From positions 2,584-31,400 of the forward strand of contig CAZDQZ010000001.1 of NCBI GenBank assembly GCA_964507835.1: a DNA stretch of 28,817 bases, in the 5' to 3' direction. Origin of the DNA: an uncultured Candidatus Peribacteria bacterium. Its GTDB lineage: Bacteria; Patescibacteriota; Gracilibacteria; Peribacterales; Peribacteraceae. This document shows, in pieces, positions 3,132-23,665 of the stretch. The notes under the pieces are model-generated. The model searched no databases. It saw nothing but the letters and a program-made list of their open reading frames with translations, and was not told where the DNA came from. The position numbers and the translations under genes were made by a program. The first letter of the stretch is position 1, and every line of letters starts with the position of its first letter.

Positions 3132-3935
3132 ATGAAGCCAATACTTCTCTGCTTACACGGCTGGGGTGGCTCCAAACAATCATTCGCCGAACTCCGTACG
3201 GCACTCAAGAACGACGATATCGAAATCCTCACACCGGACCTGCCTGGGTTTGGTAGTGAACCAGAGCCAACACGACCATGGACGAATGATGACTATGCGG
3301 ATTGGGTAGAGAACTGGCTTAAAAAAAGCGGAAAGCTGGAAGCGATAAGCGGGAAGCTCTACCTCCTTGGACATTCTCATGGTGGAAGAATTGCACTGAA
3401 ACTTGCAAACAGAGAATCAGTCACAAGTCACAAGTCACAAGTCACAAGTAAACTACGTACTCATAGCTCACAGCTCATAGCTCATAGCTTCCATATCGAA
3501 CATCTCTTTCTCTGTGCTCCCGCCGGCATCCGTCACGCCAGACATTTCAAGCGAATCATCGGACTTCTGCTCGCGAAGACTGGATCATTCTTCCTCGCTA
3601 TTCCTGGGCTCAACATACTCGCCCCCATTGGCAAGAAACTGCTCTACAGGCTCGTCCGTGTGCATGATTACGAAATAGCGAGCCCTGTGATGAGGCAAAC
3701 GATGATCAATGTCGCGCGGGAAGATCTGCGTCCACTCCTCTCTTCCATCGCTCTTCCCACTGATCTCTTCTGGGGGAAAGATGACGGAATGACGCCGTTC
3801 TCCGATGCACTCATCATGGAGAGGGAACTACCGCATGCGACACTGCATGCGTTTGAAGGTGTACGGCACAGAGTGCATCGAGACAAAGCCAGGGAGATTG
3901 CGGAAGTGATACGAGAAAAAATATTAGGTACATGA
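3132..3935 (+). CDS. Alpha/beta-fold hydrolase
   Basis: LHGWGG oxyanion motif, DLPGFG, nucleophile elbow GHSHGG, WGKDD (acid) and C-terminal His (GVRH); carries two heptamer-derived loop segments. Confidence 0.9.
   Translation: MKPILLCLHGWGGSKQSFAELRTALKNDDIEILTPDLPGFGSEPEPTRPWTNDDYADWVENWLKKSGKLEAISGKLYLLGHSHGGRIALKLANRESVTSHKSQVTSKLRTHSSQLIAHSFHIEHLFLCAPAGIRHARHFKRIIGLLLAKTGSFFLAIPGLNILAPIGKKLLYRLVRVHDYEIASPVMRQTMINVAREDLRPLLSSIALPTDLFWGKDDGMTPFSDALIMERELPHATLHAFEGVRHRVHRDKAREIAEVIREKILGT
3326..3360 (+). repeat. 7-bp-periodic degenerate tract (AAGCnnn x5), in-frame in hydrolase
   Basis: AAGCGGA AAGCTGG AAGCGAT AAGCGGG AAGCTCT. Confidence 0.8.
3419..3488 (+). repeat. Bipartite heptamer tandem repeat, in-frame in hydrolase
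   Basis: (AGTCACA)x4 at 3419-3446, a spacer, then TCATAGC TCACAGC TCATAGC TCATAGC at 3461-3488. Confidence 0.95.
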
Positions 3936-3961
3936 TGAGTCAAAGAAGGATTCTTTACATT

Positions 3962-4032
3962 GGGAGCACGATGCTTCGTGCGTTTGACAAGTGCTAATAA
4001 GGGTCATCGACCGCGGGAAGCATCCCGCTCCC
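3962..4032. other. Intergenic inverted-repeat element with two alternative folds
   Basis: GGGAGC/GCTCCC plus GATGCTTC/GAAGCATC long stem, versus local hairpins GCACGA-TGCT-TCGTGC and GCGGGA-AGCA-TCCCGC. Confidence 0.6.
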
Positions 4033-4064
4033 TTTTAAAAAATATTATCAGCTAGAATATACCC

Positions 4065-5693
4065 ATGAGCACATTCAACACTCTCTTCCTCACCCTCACC
4101 GCACTCGCCTGTGTCTCCCCTCTCCTGACACTTCTGCACCTGTGGCAGATGAAGGAGTGGCGGTGGGACAGACTGCTAGATCACCTAAAGACAGAAGGAA
4201 TCTTCATAACTCTCGTGGGCAAAGCACGGTACTTGATTGGTGCCCTGTGGCTCCTGAACGGACTCCTCGTCTTCGCATTCATGAGTCAATCGACTGAAAG
4301 CAGGGATCTGTTCTTCTCCATCTGGTTGCTAATACTCCCAGCACTCCTCGTGATACTAGGAACACTGCAATGGTTCATGAAGAAACAGCCAATGCCTGTC
4401 TGGACTCGCAAAGCTGAGCTCATGTTCGTCGTGAGCATTCTCCTCACGATTGGTGCTGGTGTCCTTGTAATGATATATACGAGTTTTGGCTTCGATAAGC
4501 CAGAAAACATCATTAAGACGAACACTTTTGCGTGGATCACTACCCTCCTTCCCTATCTAGGGTCCTTCTTTGTCGTTCTCTCCTGGCTCCTCCTCCGCCC
4601 CATTGACCTCTTCCTCAAAAATCGAATTCTCGCGCGCGCGAAAGCTCTACGAGCGTCTCATCCGCACCTCATCGTCATCGGCATCACAGGGAGTGTAGGA
4701 AAAACAACAACGAAGGAACTCATCCATCATCTGCTCAAAGACAAAGGAGCTATAGCCACACCACTGCACGTCAATACAGAGATGGGTGTGGCTGGGTGGC
4801 TGTCTTCCGTATTGAAGGACGAACCATATGATTCCACGAGAATCCTCGTCGTCGAGATGGGTGCCTACAGAATCGGAGAAATCGCACTACTCTGTGAGAT
4901 CGCACAACCGACCATTGGCGTCGTAACCTTTGTCGGCAAGCAACACAGCGGACTCTTCGGGGGAGAAGAAGCGATCGCAAAGGCAAAAGGTGAACTCGTG
5001 GCACATCTTCCAAAAAACGGACATGCATTCGTCAATGCTGACAGCCCACTCATCGACCTCCTGCTCAAAGAATCGACAGTGAATCCCATCACCATCGGCT
5101 CAGGCGCAAGCGCTCAGATCGTGGCACTCGATATCGAAGAAACTGGCAAAGGAGTACGGTTTACCACGTTCGATACAACATTCGATGTTCCCCTTGCAGG
5201 GACGCACAACGTCACGAATATTTTGCTCGCGATCGCTACTGCGAAACATCTCGGTGTCGGACTGCCAGAAATCAGACAATCACTCAGAAATTTCACGGCA
5301 TTCGAGCGAACATTCTCCGTACGCCGTGAACACGGCATCACCATTCTTGATAACTCGTATAACTCTTCCGCTGAAAGCGCCGAAGCAGGGATCGATTGGG
5401 CGAAGAGGCAACCCAACAAAGAGAAAATCCTCGTCATGAGTGGCATCATCGAACTTGGAAACGATGAAGAACGTGTGCACCGCATGATCGCCGAGAAAGC
5501 CGTGAAGGTCTTTCAGAAGGTGTACATCACACAAGAACGATTTCTAACCTACTTCAAGCCATTCTTCGGGGAGAGAGCCTCTCTCGTTTCTGCCAAAAAA
5601 CAACCACTATCCTCTGGCGCTCTGCTGGTATGCATGGGACGGATGTCAGGTGAAACAATTGAACGATTCATGCCAGAGAAAAATGAATTATGA
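4065..5693 (+). CDS. murF: UDP-N-acetylmuramoyl-tripeptide--D-Ala-D-Ala ligase with N-terminal TM segments
   Basis: P-loop GITGSVGKTTTKE, VEMGA, LAGTHNVTN, DNSYNS, GIIELG; about 180-aa hydrophobic N-terminus. Confidence 0.85.
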   Translation: MSTFNTLFLTLTALACVSPLLTLLHLWQMKEWRWDRLLDHLKTEGIFITLVGKARYLIGALWLLNGLLVFAFMSQSTESRDLFFSIWLLILPALLVILGTLQWFMKKQPMPVWTRKAELMFVVSILLTIGAGVLVMIYTSFGFDKPENIIKTNTFAWITTLLPYLGSFFVVLSWLLLRPIDLFLKNRILARAKALRASHPHLIVIGITGSVGKTTTKELIHHLLKDKGAIATPLHVNTEMGVAGWLSSVLKDEPYDSTRILVVEMGAYRIGEIALLCEIAQPTIGVVTFVGKQHSGLFGGEEAIAKAKGELVAHLPKNGHAFVNADSPLIDLLLKESTVNPITIGSGASAQIVALDIEETGKGVRFTTFDTTFDVPLAGTHNVTNILLAIATAKHLGVGLPEIRQSLRNFTAFERTFSVRREHGITILDNSYNSSAESAEAGIDWAKRQPNKEKILVMSGIIELGNDEERVHRMIAEKAVKVFQKVYITQERFLTYFKPFFGERASLVSAKKQPLSSGALLVCMGRMSGETIERFMPEKNEL

Positions 5694-5716
5694 ATGAAGA
5701 ATTATGAATTATGATG
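5682..5716 (+). repeat. Heptamer tract (TATGAAT-type x5) containing the murF stop codon
   Basis: AATGAAT TATGAAT GAAGAAT TATGAAT TATGATG. Confidence 0.85.
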
Positions 5717-5732
5717 AAGGAAATCTTTATCT

Positions 5733-5749
5733 GCGGGTCGAAGACCCGC
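5733..5749 (+). terminator. GC-rich hairpin downstream of murF (possible terminator; no U-tract)
   Basis: GCGGGTC-GAA-GACCCGC, perfect 7-bp stem. Confidence 0.45.
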
Positions 5750-5772
5750 GCTCATACTCTACAATATAGAAC

Positions 5773-5807
5773 TTATGACTGAAGACTTGTGACGTATGAC
5801 TTGTGAC
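5773..5807 (+). repeat. Heptamer tract (TTGTGAC-type x5)
   Basis: TTATGAC TGAAGAC TTGTGAC GTATGAC TTGTGAC; TTGTGAC is a reverse-complement permutation of the AGTCACA unit in the hydrolase. Confidence 0.85.
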
Positions 5808-5814
5808 TTCTACG

Positions 5815-5838
5815 AACCCTAACCCAAACCCTAACCCC
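5815..5838 (+). repeat. Hexamer tandem repeat (AACCCn x4)
   Basis: AACCCT AACCCA AACCCT AACCCC. Confidence 0.85.
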
Positions 5839-5846
5839 AAGCCACC

Positions 5847-7085
5847 CTGTCCTCCCCCATCCACCACACCTACGGCCCACACGTCGATCGAGCCACTCTC
5901 TGGCGCTCACTCTCCCTATCGTACAAACCATGGCTCTATCGAAAGGGTCCATCGATCGAGAAGTTACGAAGCGCGCTCAAAGAAAAATTCAATGCATCTG
6001 TGACGCTGTTTTCCTCCGGTCGTGAAGGTCTTCTCGCCCTCCTGCGTGCTCTCGATGTCAGGCCTGGGCAGGAGATCATCGTCCAGGGATACACATGCGT
6101 CGTCGTACCGAATGCGATCCATGCAGCTGGTGCCGTCCCAGTGTACGCCGACATCGATCCAGAAACGCTCAATCTCACACGACAAACTGTGAAAGCCGTG
6201 ATCACCGATCGCACGAAAGCGATCATCTGCCAACATACATTCGGCATCCCCGCTCCGCTCGATGCACTGCGAGAACTGTGTGACGAGAACAATATCATTC
6301 TCATCGAAGACTGTGCACACATCCTGCCCGATGCCAAAGGACCACAAGGAATAGGAATGACCGGAGACTATGCAATCCTGAGTTTTGGGCGAGATAAAGC
6401 TATCTCAGGTATCACAGGTGGTGCCATCGTTGCTCGTAGCCCTGCGGTAGCCGCGATCCTCCGTGAACTAGAGAAAACGGCACTACACCTCTCACTCTGG
6501 ACGATCGGGATGTTGCTCGAGTACCCGTCACGCATGCACTCCATCGTACGTCCGCTCGCAGGCACCATGTTCCTGAAGCCTGTCCTCTGGTTACTTCAAA
6601 GGATGAGGATGATCGTCCCCGTCGTGACTGCAGATGAGAAAGCCGGTCGCATGTCGCCTATTCTCCATAAAATACCGAATGTCTGTTCTGCTCTCGCACT
6701 ACGATCTCTGCAAGCACTCCCCCGTCTCAATGAACGAAGACGCACGCTGACATCATTCTATCTCGCACATGGCAAAAAGCAGTCCTGGCCGATTCCTGAT
6801 GGCATACGAGCCGATATGCCACTCCAGAAATTTCCCATCTTCGTCACGAATGCTCCGGGGAAGCGATCGATCCTCACAAAGGACAACATTCATCTCGATG
6901 ACGGCTGGACGGGGTGCGTTATCTGCCCAGAGAGTGTGTCTCTCGAGGTAGCTGGCTACGAATGGGGCAAGGATCCTCTCGCAGAGCAAGCCTGCAAACA
7001 CATTCTGAATCTACCCACACATCCGACGATGACACTGTACCAGGCACAGATTTTGGCGAAGAAAATTGATACATTACTCAAATAA
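5847..7085 (+). CDS. DegT/DnrJ/EryC1/StrS-family PLP-dependent aminotransferase (start uncertain; probable CTG at 5847)
   Basis: SSGREGL, VPVYADID, QHTFG, IEDCAH, SFGRDKAISGITGG (PLP Lys), LNLPTHP. The frame is open from 5835 and reads protein-like (IHHTYGPHVD...KPWLYRKGPSIEKL) well upstream of the called GTG at 6000. Confidence 0.85.
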   Translation: MSSPIHHTYGPHVDRATLWRSLSLSYKPWLYRKGPSIEKLRSALKEKFNASVTLFSSGREGLLALLRALDVRPGQEIIVQGYTCVVVPNAIHAAGAVPVYADIDPETLNLTRQTVKAVITDRTKAIICQHTFGIPAPLDALRELCDENNIILIEDCAHILPDAKGPQGIGMTGDYAILSFGRDKAISGITGGAIVARSPAVAAILRELEKTALHLSLWTIGMLLEYPSRMHSIVRPLAGTMFLKPVLWLLQRMRMIVPVVTADEKAGRMSPILHKIPNVCSALALRSLQALPRLNERRRTLTSFYLAHGKKQSWPIPDGIRADMPLQKFPIFVTNAPGKRSILTKDNIHLDDGWTGCVICPESVSLEVAGYEWGKDPLAEQACKHILNLPTHPTMTLYQAQILAKKIDTLLK

Positions 7086-7112
7086 ATTACGTGAGAACTG
7101 CAAGATTTTCTT

Positions 7113-7137
7113 TCCACTTTTTTTAGAAAAAAGTGGA
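7113..7137 (+). terminator. A/T-rich hairpin after the DegT stop
   Basis: TCCACTTTTTT-TAG-AAAAAAGTGGA, 11-bp stem flanked by T and A runs. Confidence 0.5.
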
Positions 7138-7166
7138 GAAAAAATCGTCGCTTGTTGGACAGTGCC

Positions 7167-7270
7167 TACGCAGAGCGGCTCGTATCTGCTGAAAGCGTGA
7201 ACTCCTCGCTCGCCCCCGCTCGCTCGTCAAACAGCACGCTTTCATATCGCAGATACTCACCGACTGCGTA
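7167..7270. other. Long interrupted hairpin (MITE/REP-like or ncRNA candidate)
   Basis: Nested stems TACGCAG/CTGCGTA, GTATCTGC/GCAGATAC and TGAAAGCGTG/CACGCTTTCA. Confidence 0.6.
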
Positions 7271-7333
7271 ACAGCACTGTCCAAGGCGACAAATAAATAA
7301 GGTAATACTAATTTTTCCGCTATCATTCCTCCG

Positions 7334-8476
7334 ATGACCATCACTCAAGCCCTCGATCAACAAGCCTGGGATGCCTTCCTCAGTCGTCAGCAGTACCGCC
7401 CGTTCCTCCAAAGCTGGACTATGGGGGAGGTGTACAGAGACATCGGGCAAGAGCCCGTCAGGATCGAAGCACGGGAAAACAATGAACTAATCGCAATCTG
7501 CTATGCACACGTTGTGCCAGCAAAACGAGGGAGGCATCTCTCGATTCCCTACGGCCCCATCATCGATTCCTCGCTTTCTGATGAACAAAAATCTGAAGTC
7601 CTGTGTGCTCTTACTCATGAACTCCAAAAGCTGGCAAAACAGTTTCAATGCACATTTGTCCGCATGAGTCCTTTTCAATCAATTATCAATTATCAATTAT
7701 CAATTATTCATTCCGTCCCCTCCCCACTCCATCTCCTCGCAGAGCACGTATGGTACGTACCTCTCACCACTCCTGACGCATGGACAAGCGAGATGCGACA
7801 GACGACGTACGATAGTCGATCAGAGGAAGAAATCCTCAAAGAGATGCGTAAAACGACGCGTAACCTCATCCGCAGAGCCGAGAAGGATGGCGTCACCATC
7901 GAGGTATCGACGAATCCTCTCCAAGATCTGGATGATCACTTCATCAGACTGCATGACGAAACACGCAAACGACACAAGTTTACGCCGTACTCCAATGCAT
8001 TCTTCAGAGCGCAGGTGAAGCACTTTGCTCCCCGGAATGAATGCACGGTCTACCTAGCCAAATACCAAGGAGACGTCATCGGAGCATCCGTCCACATGCA
8101 TGCATTCGGCGAAACAAGCTACCACCATGGTGCGAGTTCCAGCAATCATCATAAAATCCCCTCAAGCTATCTCCTGCAGTGGAGAGCAATCCAAGATGCG
8201 ATGAAACGGAAAGATCATGTCTATAACTTCTGGGGAATAGCGCCACGGAGCGATGAGCGATTAGCGATGAGCGATGAGCAAAAAAATGCTGATACACACA
8301 GCTCAAAGCTTACGGCTCAAAGCGTAAAGCACCCCTTCGCCGGTGTCACCCTGTTTAAAACCGGCTTCGGAGGCTCTTTACTCAATCTCCAGCACTGCAT
8401 GGATATCCCTGTTTCAAAAAAGTACTGGCTGACGTACGGGTTTGAAATATTCAGGAAGTGGCGACGAGGATTTTAG
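7334..8476 (+). CDS. FemAB/FemX-family peptidoglycan bridge-formation (aminoacyl-tRNA-dependent) transferase
   Basis: FLQSWTMG, SIPYGP, MRKTTRNLIRRAEKDGV, YHHGAS, LLQWRAIQDA, YNFWGI, GVTLFKTGFGG. Confidence 0.9.
   Translation: MTITQALDQQAWDAFLSRQQYRPFLQSWTMGEVYRDIGQEPVRIEARENNELIAICYAHVVPAKRGRHLSIPYGPIIDSSLSDEQKSEVLCALTHELQKLAKQFQCTFVRMSPFQSIINYQLSIIHSVPSPLHLLAEHVWYVPLTTPDAWTSEMRQTTYDSRSEEEILKEMRKTTRNLIRRAEKDGVTIEVSTNPLQDLDDHFIRLHDETRKRHKFTPYSNAFFRAQVKHFAPRNECTVYLAKYQGDVIGASVHMHAFGETSYHHGASSSNHHKIPSSYLLQWRAIQDAMKRKDHVYNFWGIAPRSDERLAMSDEQKNADTHSSKLTAQSVKHPFAGVTLFKTGFGGSLLNLQHCMDIPVSKKYWLTYGFEIFRKWRRGF
7679..7706 (+). repeat. Perfect heptamer repeat (TCAATTA)x4, in-frame
   Basis: Encodes SIINYQLSII. 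Confidence 0.95.
7785..7819 (+). repeat. Degenerate 7-bp-periodic tract (nnnnCGA x5), in-frame
   Basis: CAAGCGA GATGCGA CAGACGA CGTACGA TAGTCGA, in an apparent insertion before SEEEIL. Confidence 0.65.
8250..8330 (+). repeat. Bipartite, roughly inverted heptamer tract, in-frame
   Basis: GCGATGA GCGATTA GCGATGA GCGATGA, a spacer, then GCTCAAA GCTTACG GCTCAAA GCGTAAA GC. Confidence 0.9.
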
Positions 8477-8543
8477 AAGCAGAAATCCAATCGATAAATA
8501 TCGCTCTCTGTGCTATAATGAAACGAAATCCTTCCTCCAATAT

Positions 8544-8858
8544 ATGCCCACAAACACTGAATCTAGCTCTGGAACACCGATTGAGAAGAAGCTTGATCTC
8601 ATCATCGCGCACCTAGAAAAAATCGATGCTCGTGATCGGTTGCGCATGTGGGGAGGGTTCATCCGTGGATGCATCGCGATTGTACCGATTGCCTTCCTTG
8701 TCTGGAGTTCGTGGTACTTCGTCCAACATGGTGCAGATCTCATGAAACAAATAACGGATATTGCCGCCTCCTCCGCAGCCAAATATACCCAGACCTCTGG
8801 ACAAGGAATGGTCGATGAACTCATGAAGAAGTATTCATTCCCTGGTGCGACGAAGTAG
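8544..8858 (+). CDS. Small membrane protein, hypothetical
   Basis: ATG at 8544 follows TGcTATAAT (8511-8519); one TM (GFIRGCIAIVPIAFLVWSSWYF). Confidence 0.75.
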   Translation: MPTNTESSSGTPIEKKLDLIIAHLEKIDARDRLRMWGGFIRGCIAIVPIAFLVWSSWYFVQHGADLMKQITDIAASSAAKYTQTSGQGMVDELMKKYSFPGATK

Positions 8859-8925
8859 AGGATGAGGGGGGGTAGAGGATGAGATGATGTAGAGGAGGAG
8901 AGGGAGAGAAGGGTGACGTAGAACG
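8855..8925 (+). repeat. Purine-rich tract with 17-bp period (GTAGAGGAT...)
   Basis: GTAGAG at 8855, 8872 and 8889; includes the upstream gene's TAG. Confidence 0.7.
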
Positions 8926-8975
8926 TCTGAGAATCGCTTGCGAAGAAAGAAGCGTGCCGAAGGCAGGCTACGCCT

Positions 8976-9013
8976 CCTCATCCCCTACCCTTCTCCACTG
9001 CGGTGGAGAAGGG
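8976..9013 (+). repeat. REP-like palindrome, copy 1
   Basis: CCTCATCCCCTA followed by CCCTTCTCCAC-TGCG-GTGGAGAAGGG; near-identical inverted copy at 25428-25468. Confidence 0.8.
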
Positions 9014-9133
9014 TGACTCAAGAAATAAGAGAAACAGAGTTGGGAATCGCTTGCGCAAGCAAAAAAACGCGAAGCGTTGGGTGCCGAAGGCGGGTCCCGA
9101 CGCTGGAGCGTCTCCTTGAAGGGAAAGGGGTTC

Positions 9134-9166
9134 CGCAGGGGAAAACCGACAAGGTTTTCCCCTGCG
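9134..9166. terminator. 14-bp perfect hairpin between convergent genes
   Basis: CGCAGGGGAAAACC-GACAA-GGTTTTCCCCTGCG. Confidence 0.6.
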
Positions 9167-9224
9167 AATTTCAAAAGAGCGGAAGACCCCCATCTCCCGC
9201 TCTCGGTGGTTTCGTTTGGAAAGC

Positions 9225-10676: not shown

Positions 10677-10709
10677 GGAACGGGAGGGAAAAAAGGTGGA
10701 ATGAAAAAA

Positions 10710-12413: not shown

Positions 12414-12581
12414 AGGAAGTGAACAGAGGAATGTCGCTAATGTATACCGTTCAAGTGTGAAGAAAAGACGAAACAATAATTTGTTCTTGATCACTCTTTT
12501 TCTTCATTGTTTAACGTATCTTTGTACAAAAAATGTATGCACGATCGTACACCCAATTTCGATCAACGAAAGTAGTCAAAA

Positions 12582-12640: not shown

Positions 12641-12680
12641 GTGAAATAGGAAAAGATGTCTACACATGAATAGCGCAATA

Positions 12681-12707: not shown

Positions 12708-12717
12708 ATAAACAACA

Positions 12718-13697: not shown

Positions 13698-15608
13698 ATG
13701 GCTACCACACCCACAAAAACCACAGCGCACAGTAGCGGGAAATTCTTGAATCTCCTCGATGAGCTCCTCGGGCTCCATGCCAACATCGACGAAATCCTCA
13801 AGAAAGATGATGATGACGGTACGTACAGCAAAGAGGAGAAGGACATCGTGCGTCGCTACGAAGAGGGCCTCCAGAAGATCCTCGATGTCATCGCTCCGGC
13901 GGGCCTCAAGTTCGATCGATCGATGATTCACCTCAACGAACAGTTGGTGGCTCGCAGTTTCTACGCATACAACTGGCCCAGTCAGATCTACCCGAACTGG
14001 CTCAGTCAGCTCATCAACTTCGACATCCAGCTCGACCTCTCGATGTTCATCTACCCCGCGAGCAACAAGGTCATCCTGAAGATGCTACGGAAGAAAGTCG
14101 CCGAAATGCGTAGTAGTATCCGCATGCTCCAGCAACGAGGCATCGTCCGTGATCCTGCGCTCGAAGCAGCGCTCCAGGACGCAGAAGAACTTCGCGACTT
14201 GCTCGCACGTGGCTCCGAGAAGCTCTTCCAGCTCGGGTTCTACTTCACCATCTACGCCGAGAACGAAGCGAAACTGAAGAAAGTGCAGACCGACGTGGAA
14301 GCCATCCTCGGTGGCAAGCTCATCCTCACGAAAGCGGCGGCATTCCAGATGGAGCACGGATGGAACAGCTGTCTCCCCTACTGTCTCGATGAACTCGACT
14401 TCAGTCGCAACATGAACACGCAGGCGCTCGCCACGAGCTTCCCGTTCAGTTCCTCGGACCTCACGGATGATCACGGCATTCTCTACGGCATCAACAGACA
14501 CAACGACTCGCTCATCATCTTCGATCGCTTCGACCTGCCGAATGCGAATGCGAACGTCTTCGCGACCTCCGGTGCCGGTAAATCCTACGTCGTGAAGCTA
14601 GAGATCCTTCGCTCGCTCATCCAAGGCGTGCAGGCATTCGTCATCGATCCAGAGAACGAATATGTCGATCTGTGTCGCACGGTCGGTGGCACGATGATCC
14701 CGATCTCTCTCCAAGGATCGCACCGCATCAATCCCTTCGATCTGCCACACGCCGTTCGAGGCGATGAAGCAGAGACAGGAGAAGTCCTGAGGAGTGCGGT
14801 CATCAACCTCCATGGTCTCTTCAAGCTCATGCTCGGGAGCATCACGCCAGCAGAAGAAGGTGTCCTCGACAAAGCCATCCTCGACACGTACGCCCTCAAA
14901 GGCATCACACTCGAGACTCTCGAACCGGGAAAACTGGAAGTGCCCACACTCAATGATTTGATCGACGTGCTCATGACGAGCCAAGGGGGAGAATCGATGG
15001 CACAGACTCTTCAGAAGTACACGAAGGGAAGCTTCTCCGGCCTCTTCGATAAGCCTACGAACGTCGAGCTCGATAACGAAATGGTCGTGTTTCAGATCCG
15101 CGACCTGGAGGACGTCCTCCGCCCGATCGCCATCTACGTCGTCCTTAACTTCCTTTGGAATCGTATCCGTAGCGACATGCGCCGACGCTTCCTCGTCATC
15201 GACGAAGCGTGGAACCTCATGCAGTACGAAGATTCAGCACAATTCTTGTACGGTCTCATCAAACGCGCGCGTAAGTACTACCTCGGTGTCACCACGATCA
15301 CACAAGACGTCGATGACTTCATCAACTCTCCGTACGGCAGACCGATCATCAGCAACACATCACTCCAGATGCTCCTGAAGCAATCAGCAGCGAGCGTGGA
15401 TAACCTCGCGAAGCTCTTCTATCTCACAGAGGGCGAGAAGTATCTGCTCCTCAACTCCGGCGTGGGACAGGGACTCCTCTTCGCCAACAACACGCACGTT
15501 GCGATCCAGGTCGTCGCGAGTCCGAGCGAGCACCAGATCATCACGACGAAGCCAGAAGAAGTCATGAAGAAGCGAGCGGATGAGAAAGAGAAAGTGGAAG
15601 GGAAATAA
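13698..15608 (+). CDS. virB4: VirB4-like (T4SS/conjugation-type) ATPase
   Basis: Walker A ATSGAGKS, VIDPENEY, INPFD, Walker B FLVIDEAW, RARKY, TITQDVDDF; preceded by TGgTATACT at 13675-13683. Confidence 0.88.
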   Translation: MATTPTKTTAHSSGKFLNLLDELLGLHANIDEILKKDDDDGTYSKEEKDIVRRYEEGLQKILDVIAPAGLKFDRSMIHLNEQLVARSFYAYNWPSQIYPNWLSQLINFDIQLDLSMFIYPASNKVILKMLRKKVAEMRSSIRMLQQRGIVRDPALEAALQDAEELRDLLARGSEKLFQLGFYFTIYAENEAKLKKVQTDVEAILGGKLILTKAAAFQMEHGWNSCLPYCLDELDFSRNMNTQALATSFPFSSSDLTDDHGILYGINRHNDSLIIFDRFDLPNANANVFATSGAGKSYVVKLEILRSLIQGVQAFVIDPENEYVDLCRTVGGTMIPISLQGSHRINPFDLPHAVRGDEAETGEVLRSAVINLHGLFKLMLGSITPAEEGVLDKAILDTYALKGITLETLEPGKLEVPTLNDLIDVLMTSQGGESMAQTLQKYTKGSFSGLFDKPTNVELDNEMVVFQIRDLEDVLRPIAIYVVLNFLWNRIRSDMRRRFLVIDEAWNLMQYEDSAQFLYGLIKRARKYYLGVTTITQDVDDFINSPYGRPIISNTSLQMLLKQSAASVDNLAKLFYLTEGEKYLLLNSGVGQGLLFANNTHVAIQVVASPSEHQIITTKPEEVMKKRADEKEKVEGK

Positions 15609-15773
15609 GTTGCTCGTATCCTCGTTGCTCGTTTTGGTGTGAATGAGTGAAATAATGAGGAGAGGTACGATACGATCGACGGAGAATCGGCAGAATTTTT
15701 GATGCGTATATATACCGAAAATATTTGCCAAGACCCTTGACAAAACAATGAGAAAAGTACAGTAATTGCGGGC

Positions 15774-17456: not shown

Positions 17457-17466
17457 CAACGAGAGA

Positions 17467-18429
17467 CTACGACTGCACTTTCCATCGTGTCTCCGGTACG
17501 AGCTTACCATCCATTGCGAAGCCAGCGGCCTTCTTGTGTCCCCCGCCCTGGAATGTCGCAGCCATTTTGGAGACATCGACGTCGTCTCTGAGTGTCCGTA
17601 GTGACCCCTTCACTTTCCCCGATTTCTCCGCAAGAACGAGGGAGAACTTCATGCCTGGGACTGCATTGACGTAATCGATGGCACCGGTGAGCTCCGAGTA
17701 CTCGGCACCCGTTGCGCGGAAATCCCCCTCCGTCAGGGCCGAAACAGCACCGCCCTCGTCCGTCACGGAAATCTTCTCAAGGACCCTGCCCCACAGACGC
17801 AGTGTGGAGAGCTTCGCTGTACGGAAGACATTCTGCACGATGACTTGTTGACGAGCGCCTGCCCTCAGTAACCGCGCGACGGTCCGATACACACCGGCGG
17901 TCGTATTGCTGTGGACGAGACCTCCCGTATCGGTGTAGACACCATTGAGTAGTGCCGTCGCGATGTCTGGTGTGATCGTCCATCCGACGGCATCGGCGAA
18001 GTCAGCGACGATTTCGCACGTCGATGCAGCGGACGAAATGACGAAGTTCACGGTAGCGAATTTCGGATTCGTAGGATGATGATCGAAACAGATCGATGGC
18101 CAAACGCCTCCAAAGATCTGAGGGTGTTTTTCGTGGAGCTCTGTGAGCTTAGGCTCAGCACTGTCGAGGAAGATGAAGACATCCCCCTCCCGCGGAGCAG
18201 GATCATGCACGATGCGTGAAGCGAGAGGAAGAAACTGAAATGTCGGCGGTGCAGGATCGACACAGACAAGAACCGTCTGGATCGGTGCAAGATTGTCCTC
18301 GAGCAACTGAGCCATGCCCGAAAGAGAGCCGAGAGCGTCTCCATCGGGGTTCCTGTGACAGACACACACGAGGCGCTTCGCCCCCTTCATGAGCTCGAGT
18401 GCCCGATCGATGTCTGCTTTTGGAAGCAT
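17467..18429 (-). CDS. nrnA: DHH/DHHA1 phosphoesterase (NrnA-like oligoribonuclease/pAp phosphatase)
   Basis: HRNPDGDALGS, FLDSA, DHH, YTDTGG, GGGHKKAAG; lies downstream of rbfA. Confidence 0.88.
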   Translation of the reverse strand: MLPKADIDRALELMKGAKRLVCVCHRNPDGDALGSLSGMAQLLEDNLAPIQTVLVCVDPAPPTFQFLPLASRIVHDPAPREGDVFIFLDSAEPKLTELHEKHPQIFGGVWPSICFDHHPTNPKFATVNFVISSAASTCEIVADFADAVGWTITPDIATALLNGVYTDTGGLVHSNTTAGVYRTVARLLRAGARQQVIVQNVFRTAKLSTLRLWGRVLEKISVTDEGGAVSALTEGDFRATGAEYSELTGAIDYVNAVPGMKFSLVLAEKSGKVKGSLRTLRDDVDVSKMAATFQGGGHKKAAGFAMDGKLVPETRWKVQS

Positions 18430-18521
18430 AAGGGATGAAGTGTACGTGGAAGGATCACAGCATTCAAAACACTTCTCATACCAGAAACGTCATATTGTTA
18501 TATTGCTATATTGCAAGGAGT

Positions 18522-18884
18522 TTACTGGCTGGAGGACGACTTTTTTCTGGGATTTTTCTGTGGAGCAATTTTCATAAGAAGCTCGTCGATGCGGTTCCCG
18601 CGCTCCCCGACTTCATCCCTGTAGAAGCGGAGGACGGGGAGCTTATGGATGCGAATTTCCTGGGACATCTTCTTTCGAATCTCCCCCTTCATCTCGATGA
18701 GAGCCTCGATCGCACGGTCAACTCCATCGATGGCACTCAAATAAATATCTGCATACGAATAATCGGAGCTCAGTTTCACATCAACGACGCTCACCACCTT
18801 CGCTTTCATAGGAGAAATGCGGAGCGCGAATGTCGCGACGATGGAACGGATGATGCCGGCGAGTTGTTCTGGGCGGTGGGACAT
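18522..18884 (-). CDS. rbfA: 30S ribosome-binding factor A
   Basis: VVDVKLSSDYSYADIYLS and IRIHKLPVLRFYRD; true start ATG at 18884 (MSHRPEQL). Confidence 0.9.
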   Translation of the reverse strand: MSHRPEQLAGIIRSIVATFALRISPMKAKVVSVVDVKLSSDYSYADIYLSAIDGVDRAIEALIEMKGEIRKKMSQEIRIHKLPVLRFYRDEVGERGNRIDELLMKIAPQKNPRKKSSSSQ

Positions 18885-18887
18885 AGG

Positions 18888-18970
18888 ATTCGTATATGGA
18901 ATATCGTATGTGGAATATCGAATGATTGCTACTACGAATACGATATACGATATACGATATTCGATATACG
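18888..18970. repeat. Bipartite inverted heptamer tract filling the rbfA/fmt divergent intergenic region
   Basis: Left arm ATTCGTA TATGGAA TATCGTA TGTGGAA TATCGAA; right arm TACGAA TACGATA x3 TTCGATA TACG. Confidence 0.9.
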
Positions 18971-18979
18971 CTTGTATCC

Positions 18980-19831
18980 ATGCCCACCTCCGTCGTCTTC
19001 CTCGGCACCTCAGCATTCGCAGTTCCCAGTCTGAAGGCCCTTGCACATGATCCAGAATTCAACGTCGAGCTCGTCATCACACAGCCCGATCGACCGGTCG
19101 GCAGGAAGCAGATCCTCACACCATCCCCTATCAAACTTCTCTCTCGAGAACTAGGTCTACCCATCGCACAGCCCGAAAACATAAATAATTATCAATTCTC
19201 AATTATCAATTATCAATTTCTTGTCGTCGTTTCCTACGGTCAAATCCTCACCCAGAAAATCCTCGATCTCCCGACTATCGCACCCGTGAACCTCCATGCA
19301 TCGCTCCTGCCTCTGCTCCGTGGTGCTTCGCCTCTCCAGAACGCGATTCTGCAGGGCATGAACGAATCCGGTGTTACAGTGCAGAAAATCGTACGGGAGC
19401 TGGATGCCGGCCCCATCCTTGCGCAGACAGTCGTCCCCCTTGATCCGCGCGAAACGTACCAGACTCTCCACGATCGCTTGGCAGTCCTCGGCGCCTCACT
19501 CCTCGTTGAGACGCTGAAGAAACCTCTCACGCCCGTGGAACAAAATACATCGAAAGCGACGGTCTGCAGAAAATTGTCGAAAGATGACGGGGCCATAGAC
19601 CCCCGCACGATGACGGCAGTCGAGATCGATCGACGGGTACGCGCTCTCACGCCGTGGCCAGGCGTCACGATCAACGGCAATCGAATTCTGCGTTCTTCCC
19701 TCGCTCCCAGTGCAGAATCGCTCACAATACTCTGTAAGGATGCAACGGAACTTTCTATCGAACAAATACAACCTGCATCAAGAAAACCAATGTCTGGCAA
19801 AGCATTTTCTCTCGGGCGCACGCTACAATAA
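18980..19831 (+). CDS. fmt: Methionyl-tRNA formyltransferase
   Basis: VFLGTSAFA, VITQPDRPVGR, NLHASLLPLLRGASP, ELDAGPI, RVRALTPWPG; start ATG at 18980. Confidence 0.93.
   Translation: MPTSVVFLGTSAFAVPSLKALAHDPEFNVELVITQPDRPVGRKQILTPSPIKLLSRELGLPIAQPENINNYQFSIINYQFLVVVSYGQILTQKILDLPTIAPVNLHASLLPLLRGASPLQNAILQGMNESGVTVQKIVRELDAGPILAQTVVPLDPRETYQTLHDRLAVLGASLLVETLKKPLTPVEQNTSKATVCRKLSKDDGAIDPRTMTAVEIDRRVRALTPWPGVTINGNRILRSSLAPSAESLTILCKDATELSIEQIQPASRKPMSGKAFSLGRTLQ
19187..19220 (+). repeat. Heptamer tract (AATTATC-type), in-frame in fmt
   Basis: AATTATC AATTCTC AATTATC AATTATC AATTTC, encoding NYQFSIINYQF. Confidence 0.92.
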
Positions 19832-19836
19832 TCGCC

Positions 19837-21135
19837 ATGCCTCATCGACTTCGATCCATCATCATCCTCTTCGTTGTACTCCTTCTCGCGACACCAAGTA
19901 ACGTCTCAGCACTCTCGTCATCGCAAGATACCGATGGTGACGGTATTCCTGATGTGCAGGAAGATGCGAACAACAACGGCATCCCCGATGATGGTGAAAC
20001 GAATCCTCTGAAAGCAGATACAGACGGTGGAGGAGAATCGGACGGGGCAGAAATCGCCGGGAAGAGAAATCCTCTCGACCCAACGGATGATCTCACCGCT
20101 GACGCTGATGGTGACGGACTCGCCAGTGGCATCGAACTCCTCCGTGGCACGAACCCAAAAGTAGCCGATACCGATAGTGATGGCATCAATGATGCATCAG
20201 ACGCCTTCCCCACGGACAAGAAGTACAGTGTCGACAGCGATGCGAATGGACTCCCCGACGACTGGGAAACATCGACAGGCCTCACGACAGAAGTAATACC
20301 TCAGTCACGTGCATCTGATCCGGATAACGACACACTGACGAATGTTGAGGAACTGGCGCGCGGAACTGATCCGCTCAAAGCAGACACGGATGGCGATGGC
20401 GTGAACGATAGTGCCGAGCTGAAGGCCGGTCTCAACCCTCGTGAGAATGCTTGCCTCGCGTATGAGCTTGCTCCGAATACATTCGCAGACATGCATGATC
20501 ACTGGGCGATGAACGTCGTCATGAATCTAGCGAATCTGCACCAGATCCAGAATGGACATCCGATCGTGAGAGGGTACAACGTGACCACGAAAAAAGGAGA
20601 GGACATTCAATTCAAGCCTGACCAATTCGTCACACGGTTCGAATTCTTGAAGATGGTACTGGCTTCCACGTGCCGGAAGCTCAGCCCCTTCGCCGATCCC
20701 GATGTGCAAGAATTCACCGATGTTCCACGGGCAGTCCAGGACAATGAATCTGCCGATACGACCCTGAAGAGACAGGTGATCTACAGCGCCGCTCAGGATC
20801 GTATCGTGAAGGGCTATGCAGACTACAGCTTCAGACCCAATGCTCCGGTGACGCGAGCGGAAGCCGTGAAAATCCTCAGCCTCGCCGTGAAAGGATGGAA
20901 TGGAGACACGCTCAGCGCCACACCAACGGAGATCTCATTCTTCGACACCAGTACCGAGGAATGGTACTGGCCGTACCTCGAGCTCTCGGTGAAGCGTGAG
21001 CTCGTGCAAGGGTACGCCGACAGCACCTTCCGTCCCAACTCCCCCATCACACGCGCAGAAGCTGCGAAGATCATCGAGAAGAGCATCAGGCAGAACCCAT
21101 TCATCAACGGGTACGTGCTACCGGAGGAAAAGTAG
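19837..21135 (+). CDS. Secreted protein with Ca-binding DxDxDG (TSP3-like) repeats and S-layer homology (SLH) domains
   Basis: Signal peptide; many DTDGDG/DSDSDG motifs; SLH signatures FKPDQFVTRFE, GYADYSFRPNAPVTRAEA, GYADSTFRPNSPITRAEA. Confidence 0.88.
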   Translation: MPHRLRSIIILFVVLLLATPSNVSALSSSQDTDGDGIPDVQEDANNNGIPDDGETNPLKADTDGGGESDGAEIAGKRNPLDPTDDLTADADGDGLASGIELLRGTNPKVADTDSDGINDASDAFPTDKKYSVDSDANGLPDDWETSTGLTTEVIPQSRASDPDNDTLTNVEELARGTDPLKADTDGDGVNDSAELKAGLNPRENACLAYELAPNTFADMHDHWAMNVVMNLANLHQIQNGHPIVRGYNVTTKKGEDIQFKPDQFVTRFEFLKMVLASTCRKLSPFADPDVQEFTDVPRAVQDNESADTTLKRQVIYSAAQDRIVKGYADYSFRPNAPVTRAEAVKILSLAVKGWNGDTLSATPTEISFFDTSTEEWYWPYLELSVKRELVQGYADSTFRPNSPITRAEAAKIIEKSIRQNPFINGYVLPEEK

Positions 21136-21136
21136 A

Positions 21137-21219
21137 AGAAAGAAAGGAAAAAAAGGAACGAAAAGAAATCAAGGATCGTTGATTTCCTTGATTTCTTCTT
21201 ATTCCTGTATTTCTTTTTA
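21137..21219. terminator. 9-bp-periodic purine/pyrimidine inverted repeat between convergent genes (probable bidirectional terminator)
   Basis: Perfect 13-bp core AAGAAATCAAGGA (21163-21175) / TCCTTGATTTCTT (21185-21197); TTC recurs at 21184, 21193, 21202 and 21211. Confidence 0.65.
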
Positions 21220-21582
21220 GAGCTTCGTCTTCATCTCCTGGAAGGCTGCGATCATGGCATCCAGATCCTCGACGTCGAAGACGATCGTAGACTTCTGGCC
21301 TCCGCGAGACTTCTCGGAGACTTTGAAGAACTTGCCGTTACCGGACTGCTTCAAGTCGATGTAGAACGTGCGCTGACGTGCACGAATCGTGATGGAGTGG
21401 ATCTCCTCGCCATAGCGACTGGAGTTGCCACCACCAGGTCCACCGAAACCGCCACTACGAGGCTGTCCACCGAAACTACGACCACCTCCATGTGCTGGAG
21501 CCGGAGCACCAAAGTTGCTCGTTGGTGCGAGTGGATCGTCGTTCCCGACGGGACTACTGAGTTCTGACATTGGATCGAACAT
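21217..21582 (-). CDS. PUR-alpha-like (DUF3276-type) ssDNA/RNA-binding protein with Gly-rich N-terminus
   Basis: EEIHSITIRARQRTFYIDLKQSGNGKFFKVSEK...TIVFDVED matches the PUR repeat pattern; start ATG at 21582 or 21570. Confidence 0.82.
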   Translation of the reverse strand: MFDPMSELSSPVGNDDPLAPTSNFGAPAPAHGGGRSFGGQPRSGGFGGPGGGNSSRYGEEIHSITIRARQRTFYIDLKQSGNGKFFKVSEKSRGGQKSTIVFDVEDLDAMIAAFQEMKTKL

Positions 21583-21691
21583 AAAAAATTGGGGAAAGAA
21601 GTATGTGCTCCCGTGCATCGAGATTGGCTCTGCTCTGCACCCTGTACCGGTAAACCACAACGTATCCCTTGTAGTTCGGAAGCGTAAGCTC

Positions 21692-21700
21692 AGTATACCA
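21692..21700 (-). promoter_or_regulatory. Extended -10 (TGgTATACT) about 110 nt upstream of the PUR gene
   Basis: Plus strand AGTATACCA. Confidence 0.45.
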
Positions 21701-21717
21701 GCACTCCCCCAGCCTGA

Positions 21718-22029
21718 CTAGTTGGCGGGAAACGCATCGAGATTGTATGGATTGTTTTCTGGTGGCGGGTCAACATCATTAGTATCTGGAATCGCGCGAA
21801 TCACCGCTGGAGCAAAAGTAGTCCTCGAATCTTGCTGAGCAGGTACTGGCACATGTTCTTTCGCTTTTGGTTTGCCTTCTTCCTTCGGATCAAGAACAGT
21901 TGCAACGAGCGTCGTCACTCCTAAAACAACAGCAAGCATTTTTAACTTAACCGATGGTCGGTGATGATGATCCGGAGGGATGCACCCATCGTCATCAAAG
22001 CCGAAATCGTCATGTTCGTAGAATGACAT
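21718..22029 (-). CDS. Small single-TM hypothetical protein
   Basis: Acidic/His N-terminus, TM MLAVVLGVTTLVATVL, Pro-rich tail; ATG at 22029 preferred. Confidence 0.6.
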   Translation of the reverse strand: MSFYEHDDFGFDDDGCIPPDHHHRPSVKLKMLAVVLGVTTLVATVLDPKEEGKPKAKEHVPVPAQQDSRTTFAPAVIRAIPDTNDVDPPPENNPYNLDAFPAN

Positions 22030-22065
22030 ATAGAGTAGAACTATCAAGATTATAATATATTTGCT

Positions 22066-23592
22066 TTATTTATCAAGCTGTGGAAACAGGATTGCAGGAT
22101 CCCCTACTTTCGTCCAATCCTTCTGACTCCCCCACTCTTTCATCTCATCAGTGATCACAAAAGATTTCTCCAGCATTTTCTCTGCGTACGGTACCCCAAG
22201 CTGAAGGCTGATCTTCTGCGCCGTCTCTGGCATGAATGGGAGAAGCATGAGCGAGATGTGGCGAAGCATTTCGGCGATCGATGCTAGCACCTGCATCTTC
22301 TCCTCACCTTTGAGAGTCCATGGCTTCTTTTGTTCCATGAGGACATTGCCATCGACAGCAAGGTTTACTGCTTGTGTGATCGCACTCGACAGATCGAAAG
22401 TATCCATCTGATCCGAGTAGAGCTCCCAGAGACTCGTCACTCGATTCTGTAGTACCTCATCAGCAGAGAGTGTGAACGATCCTCCTTCTTTCTTGAGGAG
22501 GACAAGAGCTCGATTCAATAAATTGCCGATCTTATTGCTGAGGACACCGATGTAAAGTTCATCGATGCGCTTCCAGCTGAAGTCTCCGTCGTTACCCACC
22601 GGCACTTCATGGCTAAGGTAGAAACGTAGTGGATCAGGATTACCCTTGAAGTGCGCGAGGACTTCCTCTGGTTTCACGACGTTGCCAAGCGACTTACTCA
22701 TCTTCTCTCCATCACTCGTGAGGAAGCCGTGGATGAGGAGTTGATCGGGAGTGCGAATGCCACTGTGCTTGAGCATCGCAGGCCAAATGAGTGCGTGGAA
22801 GCGCGCGATGTCCTTGCCGATCACATGTGTCACGGTTGCATCATCCCACAATTTCGTATCAGCATGATCCGTCAGGAGTCCAAGACCAGAAATATAGTTG
22901 GTAAGCGCATCGAACCAGACGTACATCGTCTGCTGTTCATCCCCTGGCACTGGGATACCCCATGATAGACTTGTCTTTGGCCTAGAGAACGATACATCTT
23001 CTAAACCCGTGTCGAGGAGCGCGAGCGTCTCATTCTCACGAAAACTTGGCACAATCTTGTACTCTTTATGTAATAATTTTTTGAGCCAAGCAGTTTCCTT
23101 CGAAAGCGTGAAAAACCAGTTTTCCTCCTTTACTTCCTCAGGAGCCCTCTGATGATTTTCACACTTGCCATCGACCAAATCTTTCTTCGTGAGGAAGCGC
23201 TCACAGCCCGTGCAATAGAGCCCCGTGTAGGTGCGCTTCTCCAGTACTCCAGCCTTCTGTAGACGCTTCCATAATTCGATCACCGTTGGCCAATGCTTAC
23301 TCTGATCCGTCGTGCGGATGAAGACATCGGCAGAAATACCGAGTTTGGCATACAAGTCCTGAAAGAACGGCACATTACGATCGACGAGTGCTTTCGGCGT
23401 CATCTTTTCTTTGTCCGCTGTTTGCTGGATCTTTATCCCGTGTTCGTCCGTGCCGATCTGGAAGCGCACTACATCACCACGAAGACGAAAATAACGAGCA
23501 ATGACGTCTGCGAGAACCTTCTCCAAGACATGTCCCATATGCGGAGCAGCATTGGGATAATCGATAGCGGTGGTGATGTATTGGCGGATCAT
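22066..23592 (-). CDS. metG: Methionine--tRNA ligase (short form, no C-terminal dimerisation domain)
   Basis: YITTAIDYPN..PHMGH, GTDEHG, CxxC...CxxH knuckle, YVWFDAL, IGKDI.RFH, KMSKS. Confidence 0.96.
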   Translation of the reverse strand: MIRQYITTAIDYPNAAPHMGHVLEKVLADVIARYFRLRGDVVRFQIGTDEHGIKIQQTADKEKMTPKALVDRNVPFFQDLYAKLGISADVFIRTTDQSKHWPTVIELWKRLQKAGVLEKRTYTGLYCTGCERFLTKKDLVDGKCENHQRAPEEVKEENWFFTLSKETAWLKKLLHKEYKIVPSFRENETLALLDTGLEDVSFSRPKTSLSWGIPVPGDEQQTMYVWFDALTNYISGLGLLTDHADTKLWDDATVTHVIGKDIARFHALIWPAMLKHSGIRTPDQLLIHGFLTSDGEKMSKSLGNVVKPEEVLAHFKGNPDPLRFYLSHEVPVGNDGDFSWKRIDELYIGVLSNKIGNLLNRALVLLKKEGGSFTLSADEVLQNRVTSLWELYSDQMDTFDLSSAITQAVNLAVDGNVLMEQKKPWTLKGEEKMQVLASIAEMLRHISLMLLPFMPETAQKISLQLGVPYAEKMLEKSFVITDEMKEWGSQKDWTKVGDPAILFPQLDK

Positions 23593-23622
23593 AGTGAGAA
23601 CAAGATTAGCACGTTCGGAAAA

Positions 23623-23643
23623 TTATGAATCAAGAATTATGAA
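23623..23643 (+). repeat. Short heptamer tract upstream of metG
   Basis: TTATGAA TCAAGAA TTATGAA; same family as the tract at the murF stop. Confidence 0.6.
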
Positions 23644-23665
23644 CAACAGAAATCTACACCATAAC

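Follow-up and report, generated by a model that had tools for sequence, protein, structure and literature searches.

Tandem repeats of 7-nucleotide units are the most abundant class of long simple sequence repeats (SSRs) in many prokaryotes, and a contact with the polymerase was proposed to account for them (Mrazek 2007, as cited in PMC4679880 and PMC4692102). Described cases include the short tandemly repeated repetitive (STRR) sequences of heterocystous cyanobacteria (Mazel 1990), the GGGAATC repeats of Xanthomonas and the TAACTGA repeats of Beggiatoaceae (PMC4679880, PMC4692102). Here we analyse heptamer repeats in a stretch of 28,817 nucleotides (the window) on contig C1 of the genome of an uncultured Candidatus Peribacteria bacterium (GCA_964507835.1, hereafter G000; 1.157 Mb in 129 contigs, 84% complete). 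On balance, we consider it probable that these repeats belong to a lineage-wide, STRR-like heptamer population that is coupled to multi-copy hairpin cassettes of the intervening-sequence protein (IVP, Pfam accession PF05635) and filtered by selection. PF05635 is the family of the protein of 23S rRNA intervening sequences, a relative of the Avd protein of diversity-generating retroelements (DGRs).

Several known systems share part of this picture. STRR sequences and other heptamer long SSRs, such as those of Xanthomonas, Burkholderia and Beggiatoaceae, likewise consist of tandem 7-nt units, with several unit families per genome, an excess at period 7, dispersal and frequent inverted pairs; the Xanthomonas repeats also run to about four units (PMC4692102), and the mechanism of the heptamer class is unexplained. 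Unlike these, the repeats described here occur in a host of the candidate phyla radiation (CPR) with a genome of ~1.2 Mb, over half of them are in-frame parts of protein-coding genes, housekeeping genes included, orthologous loops are rewritten with different units, and tract load follows the number of PF05635 copies. The TAACTGA repeats of marine Beggiatoaceae, cyanobacteria and Bacteroidetes resemble ours in their TGA/TCA core (reverse complement TCAGTTA), in an orientation set by stops in all three frames, in reverse copies that read LSVISYQ and in copies placed just 5' of starts (PMC4679880). They have a single dominant unit and are mostly intergenic, whereas the population here has dozens of units and many in-gene tracts.

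The 23S rRNA intervening sequences (IVSs) of Coxiella burnetii, Leptospira and Xanthomonas also hold a PF05635 open reading frame (ORF) in the loop of a long stem, and in Coxiella three to four tandem GACAGAT heptamers, in strain-variable number, lie in the stem beside the S23p ORF, where RNase III cleaves (PMC4990558). In contrast, the two annotated cassettes of G000 (on contigs C15 and C39) sit between protein-coding genes, and the elements of the window occupy a spacer and a coding loop. DGRs share the four-helix-bundle superfamily of Avd (a weak PF22296 bAvd co-match is seen here) and overwrite a stretch of a gene without changing its length, but no reverse transcriptase (RT) was found in G000 or in 11 of 17 tract-rich relatives, there is no pair of template and variable repeats, and the overwritten stretches are simple heptamer repeats. 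Repetitive extragenic palindromes (REPs) and their associated tyrosine transposases (RAYTs) offer a further likeness, namely short dispersed palindromes, mostly at gene ends, of genome-specific sequence and with an associated small gene; instead of a fixed palindrome of 20-40 bp, however, the present elements have arms of tandem heptamers, and no complete Y1 transposase was found with them.

A preliminary description of the window had called its repeats the best candidate for an undescribed system. This was overstated, because a genome-wide excess of heptanucleotides is already on record (STRR; Mrazek 2007). In the open-access literature we found no link between heptamer repeats and PF05635, and nothing relevant on heptamer or tandem repeats in Peribacteria. 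What is new relative to that literature is the pervasive in-frame rewriting of loops and the strong, specific coupling to PF05635 cassettes, neither of which we found in print.

Heptamer tracts are in excess in the window and across the genome

The roughly ten period-7 tracts first noticed in the window are real features of the sequence, with the units originally named: we count five strong and about eight weaker ones (Table 1). Tandem Repeats Finder (TRF) returns 12 period-7 arrays at or next to the same positions. Under a stricter scan the window has five period-7 tracts, where 200 shuffles of mononucleotides or triplets give 0.015; each of the other periods from 4 to 12 yields 0-1. Copies within a tract had been said to degenerate while keeping phase; in the degenerate tract at 7786-7820, read directly, CGA recurs five times at exactly 7-nt spacing.

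The excess extends to the whole genome, which holds 57 period-7 tracts compared with none at periods 5, 6, 10 and 11, six at period 8 and 13 at period 9. A simpler count, of any trinucleotide repeated four times in phase, gives 986 cases for period 7, compared with 84 for period 6 and 128 for period 8. The typical tract has four to five units (median 32 bp). Several are exactly 55 bp long and one begins a contig; 55 bp is the k-mer limit of the assembler, and the true lengths of the longest tracts are therefore under-estimated. Units fall into recurrent families (ACATACG 12, AAAGCTC 10, AAGTCAC 9, AAACCTC 5, plus others), and identical units stand at 9-12 unrelated loci of the one genome. Tandem 7-nt units in at least three copies, a period-7 excess and several dispersed unit families, all of which are seen here, are the features of the STRR type.

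Most units had been said to share a TCA/TCG core. These are indeed the commonest in-phase trinucleotides (TCG at 64 loci, TCA at 57), with CTC (50), AGC (48) and AAT (47) close behind, but within tracts they are no better kept than the rest of the unit. A conserved TCA core followed by a variable spacer can be rejected, since the core has no deficit of mismatches. In G000 the mismatches are concentrated at position 4, directly after TCA, because this is precisely where a unit that could bring a stop into frame is changed. TCA thus reflects a preference of composition and not a conserved recognition core.

A crude ORF map places 33 of the 57 tracts within ORFs and the remaining 24 in spacers or at gene boundaries. 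As spacers make up ~10% of the genome, intergenic and boundary sites are enriched for tracts about 4-fold; the population is nonetheless not predominantly intergenic in the manner of the cyanobacterial and Xanthomonas repeats, a trait that is descriptive rather than strict. For in-gene tracts the sense strand is always the stop-free one, giving 7-residue repeats such as SQVTSHK, SKLKAQS, KPQTSNL and SIINYQL, while TGA-oriented tracts lie on or just past stops (murF, and after virB4). The siting proposed at the outset, in protein loops, at stop codons and upstream of starts, is what we see in the loops of the FemX-like gene and fmt, at the murF stop and near the metG start. Tracts also cluster, with 11 neighbouring pairs within 150 bp against ~2 expected by chance, and many of these pairs are inverted.

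IVP genes sit between inverted heptamer arms

The preliminary description mentioned similar heptamer tracts near four-helix-bundle (Avd/IVP-like) genes in other bacteria and placed no such gene in the window. Both points hold. Heptamer arms flank IVP genes, whose copies track the tracts, and a search of the window's own genome located five PF05635 genes, all elsewhere (contigs C39, C15, C27, C63 and C16), each between inverted arms of period 7 or 8. Across 32 genomes, 30 of 36 IVP genes lie between inverted arms, whose period is 7 in 24 cases, 8 in five and 9 in one. As read from sequence, an IVP cassette is a gene for a predicted four-helix-bundle protein of ~120 residues in the loop of a hairpin whose stems are inverted runs of four to five heptamer units. 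For the C39 protein, the closest solved structure is that of the pentameric Xanthomonas XCC0516 (2GSC, E 6e-25).

Cassettes and dispersed tracts draw on the same units. Sixteen of the 57 dispersed tracts of G000 share an exact unit with the arms of its own IVP cassettes, compared with 0-2 for 13 unrelated arms of other genomes. Each genome has its own unit repertoire, common to cassette arms and dispersed tracts. Within the window, the hairpin that fills the rbfA-fmt spacer aligns to the C15 cassette arms (28/35 and 29/35), and the pair in loop 3 of the FemX-like gene aligns to the C39 cassette arms (22/27 and 19/23). Because repeats of one unit family align easily, such alignments of ~80% are supportive and not proof. 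The rbfA-fmt pair looks like a gene-less copy of the C15 cassette arms; no PF05635 ORF lies within the hairpin loops of the window, which holds arm pairs only.

The C15 cassette (G000:C15:15790-18071, L151) has the order lexA-IVP-dinB, where lexA encodes an S24 peptidase with a LexA DNA-binding domain and dinB a Y-family polymerase. The C39 cassette adjoins a family-2 glycosyltransferase, and the remaining three have flanks that look like coding sequence. Resolution of the IVP tree is poor, and arm families do not form clades in it; the well-supported clade of lexA-dinB cassettes has three different arm units, and arms therefore turn over with period and complementarity kept.

As a side observation, flanking sequences indicate the same lexA-IVP-dinB order in the relatives G074 and G033, and an IVP gene lies beside the Y-family polymerase gene in G205, a member of another family.

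Tract load follows IVP copy number across the class

To survey relatives we used the probe (TCA-N4)x3-TCA, for which ~0.14 matches per genome are expected by chance. Of the family's 101 genomes, 81 have at least one match, and the highest number in a single genome is 87. A reversed control, ACT-N4, is even commoner than the TCA probe in some genomes, and unit spectra are therefore lineage-specific but overlapping. About one fifth of the genera of the family have no probe matches, and 17 of 20 such genomes lack any period-7 tract in 20-kb samples. The distribution is equally patchy across the 32 families of the class.

Tract load goes with IVP copies. PF05635 is present in 15 of 15 tract-rich genomes of the family and in 8 of 15 tract-free ones (mean copies 6.5 vs 1.3), and its profile matches one of 14 control genomes; within the family, copies range from 1 to 24 per genome. 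The correlation between IVP copies and tract matches is rho 0.49 within the family (n=101), 0.75 across 109 genomes of 30 other families and 0.83 over 31 family means, and in 10 of the 11 families that contain both kinds of genome, IVP-positive genomes have more matches than IVP-negative ones. The cassette arms themselves contribute only ~0.9 probe matches per gene (2 of 115 in G000), and removing two matches per IVP gene leaves rho at 0.51, removing four at 0.32. DinB, the Y-family polymerase used as a control, gives rho 0.04.

One relative, G033, contains an array of tandem paralogous genes (L064/L065, C8:120-145 kb) that end in CxxCYLKEVY-stop, each followed by a near-identical heptamer-armed hairpin; gene duplication therefore inflates the tract count of this genome.

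Orthologous loops and spacers hold unrelated units

The relatives available for comparison all belong to other genera, with Fmt 53-62% identical. In the variable loop of Fmt, between QPENIN and LVVVSYGQIL, at least five of 12 genera carry tracts: that of G000 is (TCAATTA)n, two genera share (TCAATTT)5 at positions that differ slightly, and one genus each has (AGTCCTC)4 and (CTCAAAG)4. The other seven genera have ordinary sequence, and the loop is about equally long in all. The phase of the repeat runs on from conserved ATCAAT codons. In at least six of 12 genera the neighbouring rbfA-fmt spacer is occupied by hairpins whose heptamer arms are built of unrelated units.

The FemX-like gene tells a similar story. 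Its loop 1 carries TCAATTA, CTACCCG, CTCAATT or CTCTGAA tracts in four of 14 genera at unchanged length, the orthologs in G013, G018 and G003 having heptamer units other than that of G000. Loop 3 has two-arm insertions in three genera (GAGCGAT+GCTCAAA, CAGCGAT+CTCAAAG and TAGCGAG+CTACCCG) and a single tract, of AGATGCA, in a fourth; it is 26-34 residues long in G000, G013, G004 and G018 and 13-16 in the four other orthologs read there (G007, G010 and G003 among them). One and the same unit, CTACCCG, occupies loop 1 in one genus and loop 3 in another. Separately, loop 3 of the G018 ortholog (L142) contains a perfect 22-nt inverted repeat without periodicity, within coding sequence, at the place where other genera have heptamer arms.

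Alignment of orthologs, which had been suggested as a check on the origin of the tracts, thus finds the same loops holding tracts with unrelated units in different genera. Gradual divergence from one ancestral tract is unlikely, given that the units have nothing in common and that adding or losing one of them would shift the frame. The pattern, in these alignments, is that expected if tracts are written again and again, out of a shared repertoire, into a few tolerant sites. The earlier contention that independent slippage is insufficient also stands: unit families are shared by many loci and genera, and purely local slippage does not account for the shared repertoire.

Tracts and neighbouring genes of the window

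Table 1. Period-7 tracts of the window, with the arrays returned by TRF in the last two rows.
Tract	Position	Strand	Context
Degenerate (AAGCNNN)x4.6	3326..3357	+	In alpha/beta-hydrolase gene (3132-3935), 5' of the GHSHGG nucleophile motif; TRF period 7, 72% matches
(AGTCACA)x4.9	3416..3449	+	In frame in hydrolase; reads SVTSHKSQVTS
(CTCATAG)x4.3	3460..3489	+	In frame in hydrolase; unit family of the C39 IVP cassette arms
(ATGAATT)x4.6, TGA orientation	5683..5714	+	Supplies murF stop codon (5691-5693) and continues into spacer; murF ORF 4065-5693
Degenerate (GACTTGT/ACTTATG)	5771..5809	+	Upstream of DegT-type aminotransferase; reverse complement of AGTCACA family
(ATCAATT)x4.3	7678..7707	+	Loop 1 of FemX-like gene (7334-8476); reads SIINYQLSI
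Degenerate (NNNCGAN)x5	7786..7820	+	Second variable loop of FemX-like gene; CGA at 7789, 7796, 7803, 7810, 7817; not in TRF list
Bipartite tract	8248..8322	+	FemX-like loop 3: (GAGCGAT)x4.6, 19-nt spacer, (GCTCAAA-type)x3.5
(GTTGCTC)x3.4	15609..15633	+	Directly after stop of VirB4-like ATPase gene (13698-15608)
Inverted arm pair, TCGTATA-type then TACGATA-type	18886..18975		Fills divergent rbfA-fmt spacer; rbfA 18522-18893, minus
(AATTATC)x4.6	19187..19218	+	Variable loop of fmt (18980-19831); reads NYQFSIINYQF; loop occupied, not lengthened
Weak three-unit (ATTATGA)	23623..23645		~30 nt upstream of metG start (metG 22066-23592, minus); not in TRF list
Short (AGCATTT)x2.3	27585..27600		TRF
TRF period-7 arrays, first half	3326-3357, 3419-3449, 3460-3489, 5683-5714, 5784-5809, 7678-7707		
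TRF period-7 arrays, second half	8248-8279, 15609-15633, 18890-18923, 18933-18970, 19187-19218, 27585-27600		

Homology to alpha/beta-hydrolases is present on both sides of the first tract in the hydrolase gene, and the Pfam and NCBIfam matches of this protein end at residue 96 and restart at residue 194. In the tract at 3460..3489, the sole unit that could place TAG in frame reads CAG instead. The two tracts at 3416-3489 give no hairpin on folding (z -0.5). The FemX-like loop 3 pair is an in-frame hairpin (-25.8 kcal/mol, z -3.5) in which an in-frame TGA is replaced by TTA, and for the pair in the rbfA-fmt spacer the predicted fold has -32.9 kcal/mol (z -5.4).

Two further features of the window stand apart from the heptamers. 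At 5815-5837, just past heptamer tracts, is a telomere-like run of hexamers (AACCCT/AACCCA, complementary to TTAGGG), and the frame of the DegT-type aminotransferase seems to begin there without a canonical start. A small ORF at 21217-21660 (minus strand) matches the PUR family of PurA-type repeats that bind single-stranded DNA and RNA, and its product might bind single-stranded nucleic acid of repeated sequence.

Source organism and stability of the tracts

The source genome is small, encodes pilins and a VirB4 of CD1110 type and has no MutS, a gene content that fits a CPR bacterium. The nearest named relative of its Fmt belongs to an uncultured Candidatus Peribacteria metagenome-assembled genome (MAG; 51% identity), and the relatives at class level include TGA-recoded genomes. 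The sequence itself occurs in wastewater, activated-sludge and aquatic metagenomes of at least 10 studies and in metatranscriptomes.

Independent assemblies support the tracts: contigs of four runs from four studies carry the tracts, and an assembly artefact is thereby ruled out. Contigs from two other studies (X2, an RNA library, and X7) cross 5683-5809, 7678-7707, 8248-8279, 18890-18970 and 19187-19218 with no indel; in X1, probably the source run, one contig extends over 18890-19218 without a gap. The tracts are therefore real and stable between populations. They are not visibly removed from the RNA-library contigs. Variation in unit number, for which read data were to be checked, was not seen between populations: no indel at any tract is listed in the contigs of the four runs, although contigs drop rare variants and low-level length variation is invisible there.

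A 17-bp tandem repeat region at 8855-9068 and its surroundings do differ between metagenome populations, whereas the heptamer tracts do not. The variants comprise 2-nt insertions at 8863/8865, a 9-nt deletion at 8961 and a 54-nt replacement at 9013-9068.

Other candidate genes

A co-occurrence of tracts with RT or HUH transposase genes, raised in the preliminary description, is not borne out. No RT (PF00078) was found in G000, at 84% completeness. Among 30 relatives RT is present in eight, namely six of 17 tract-rich and two of 13 tract-free genomes, and an RT as writer of the tracts is rejected in that its presence has no link to load. Low-scoring PF05635 matches do adjoin RT genes in G070 (C25, C55), G038 (C14) and G084 (C13); these look like genuine DGR pairs of RT and Avd and are distinct from the high-scoring IVP cassettes.

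A RAYT or other HUH transposase fares no better, as the only Y1_Tnp match in G000 is partial, covering profile positions 13-74 of 121 and residues 473-535 of an alanyl-tRNA synthetase (AlaRS) frame. This frame (G000:C18:15802-15990; L103:1312-3105, minus strand) is a curiosity in its own right, for it encodes the AlaRS catalytic and tRNA-recognition region (residues 1-404) and then, in the same frame, the 62-residue IS200-like Y1 match. One possibility is an AlaRS that has been truncated or split and joined to what is left of a transposase.

Two candidates concern replication and repair. The lexA-IVP-dinB order suggested the Y-family polymerase as a driver, a candidate rejected because it shows no association with tracts. 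MutS domain V (MutS_V) turned up in only one of 30 family genomes and not in the other 29, tract-rich or tract-free, so the lineage appears to lack canonical MutS mismatch repair. Loss of mismatch repair does not discriminate, since MutS_V is missing from tract-rich and tract-free genomes alike.

How the tracts may arise

We propose that new tracts would be copied in 7-nt register from existing tracts, and not from local sequence alone. Strand slippage or template switching at hairpin-prone repeats is the likely route, and the pentameric IVP protein could promote or stabilise the copying. Selection would then filter the products: within genes, only stop-free, frame-preserving copies in tolerant loops would survive, to be translated as 7-residue low-complexity repeats, and TGA-oriented copies would end at stop codons. 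Pairs of arms in spacers would persist as long hairpins, probably acting on RNA (processing, stability or termination) by analogy with the RNase III-processed stems of IVSs. Speculatively, the usual four to five units per tract or arm would fit one unit per subunit of the IVP pentamer. Of the original interpretation, the insufficiency of independent local slippage and the link to four-helix-bundle genes are supported; an undescribed class, a conserved core and RT or HUH involvement are unsupported or overstated, and no variation in unit number was seen between populations.

A stronger version of this account, which we put forward tentatively and with less confidence, makes PF05635 cassettes the source or driver of bacterial heptamer repeats: the pentamer would bind about five units in hairpin or single-stranded nucleic acid and promote in-register copying into new sites without RT, overwriting tolerant loops among others. 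Several observations weigh against an IVP-centred account. IVP phylogeny does not track the arm unit, which speaks against a cognate specificity of IVP for its units. Some genomes are tract-rich without a detected IVP (G163 with 68 matches, G102 with 30, G139 with 28 and G192 with 23), and others have IVP and almost no tracts (G081, G091 and G034). The rho values ignore phylogeny, the probe covers four trinucleotide cores only and the MAGs are incomplete. To our knowledge, no catalytic activity is known for PF05635. The coupling between IVP and tracts is statistical and structural, not causal.

The most serious rival, which we judge doubtful though well worth keeping in view, is that the replisome has a built-in preference for 7-nt steps and simply slips (Mrazek 2007) in a MutS-less lineage, the IVP genes being passengers that settle in, or are kept by, pre-existing hairpins and the shared units a product of mutational or selective convergence. 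Heptamer excess in many unrelated phyla (PMC4679880, PMC4692102) and the near-absence of MutS_V from the family agree with it, as do the tract-rich genomes in which IVP is not detected. Concerted slippage plus hairpin-templated correction also predicts the turnover of orthologous cassette arms with period and complementarity kept, and the Fmt repeat continues the phase of conserved codons. What slippage leaves unexplained is that tract-free and tract-rich genera coexist in one MutS-less family, so that a lineage-specific factor is needed, and that identical units recur at unrelated loci of one genome and in different loops of different genera. In coding loops, moreover, single-unit steps break the frame, making gradual replacement of units unlikely, and the IVP association is strong and specific relative to the DinB control.

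Copying among tracts coupled to IVP cassettes also has to be set against a third reading, in which the tracts primarily serve as arrays of binding sites, read in 7-nt register by a protein that recognises RNA or single-stranded DNA, and are kept by regulatory selection near starts and stops and in hairpins. Precedents for such reading exist, in that HutP recognises UAG-N4 triplets and cold-shock proteins bind heptamers. The 24 of 57 tracts in the intergenic and boundary ~10% of the genome, the individual tracts on the stop of murF, past virB4, between rbfA and fmt and upstream of metG, and the typical length of four to five units would all suit an array, which MacGregor (2015) proposed for TAACTGA repeats. 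With more than half of the tracts in coding loops of unrelated genes, and with units that are very diverse, differ at orthologous sites and have no conserved core within tracts, we think this improbable. Phase variation, in which gain or loss of a unit would switch genes on and off, can be set aside as very improbable: a 7-nt unit does shift the frame and some tracts lie at promoters and stops, but no indel is listed at any tract in contigs of four runs from four studies, among which the 17-bp region did vary, and the carriers include essential housekeeping genes (fmt, the FemX-like gene, the end of murF), all in frame.

Implications

The family offers a natural comparison, with tract-free and tract-rich genera side by side among MutS-less genomes of ~1 Mb and a tract load that follows IVP copies and not the control gene. 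Surface loops of essential enzymes (Fmt, the FemX-like ligase and the hydrolase) can evidently be rewritten repeatedly by repeats that are not triplets, which is relevant to annotation, to the alignment of CPR proteins and to why CPR assemblies break at tracts. PF05635 has solved structures and no assigned function outside DGRs, and the heptamer excess has long been without a mechanism. If IVP cassettes do drive the repeats, this would explain the period-7 excess noted since 1990 and 2007 and would give the orphan IVP/Avd-like family a function.

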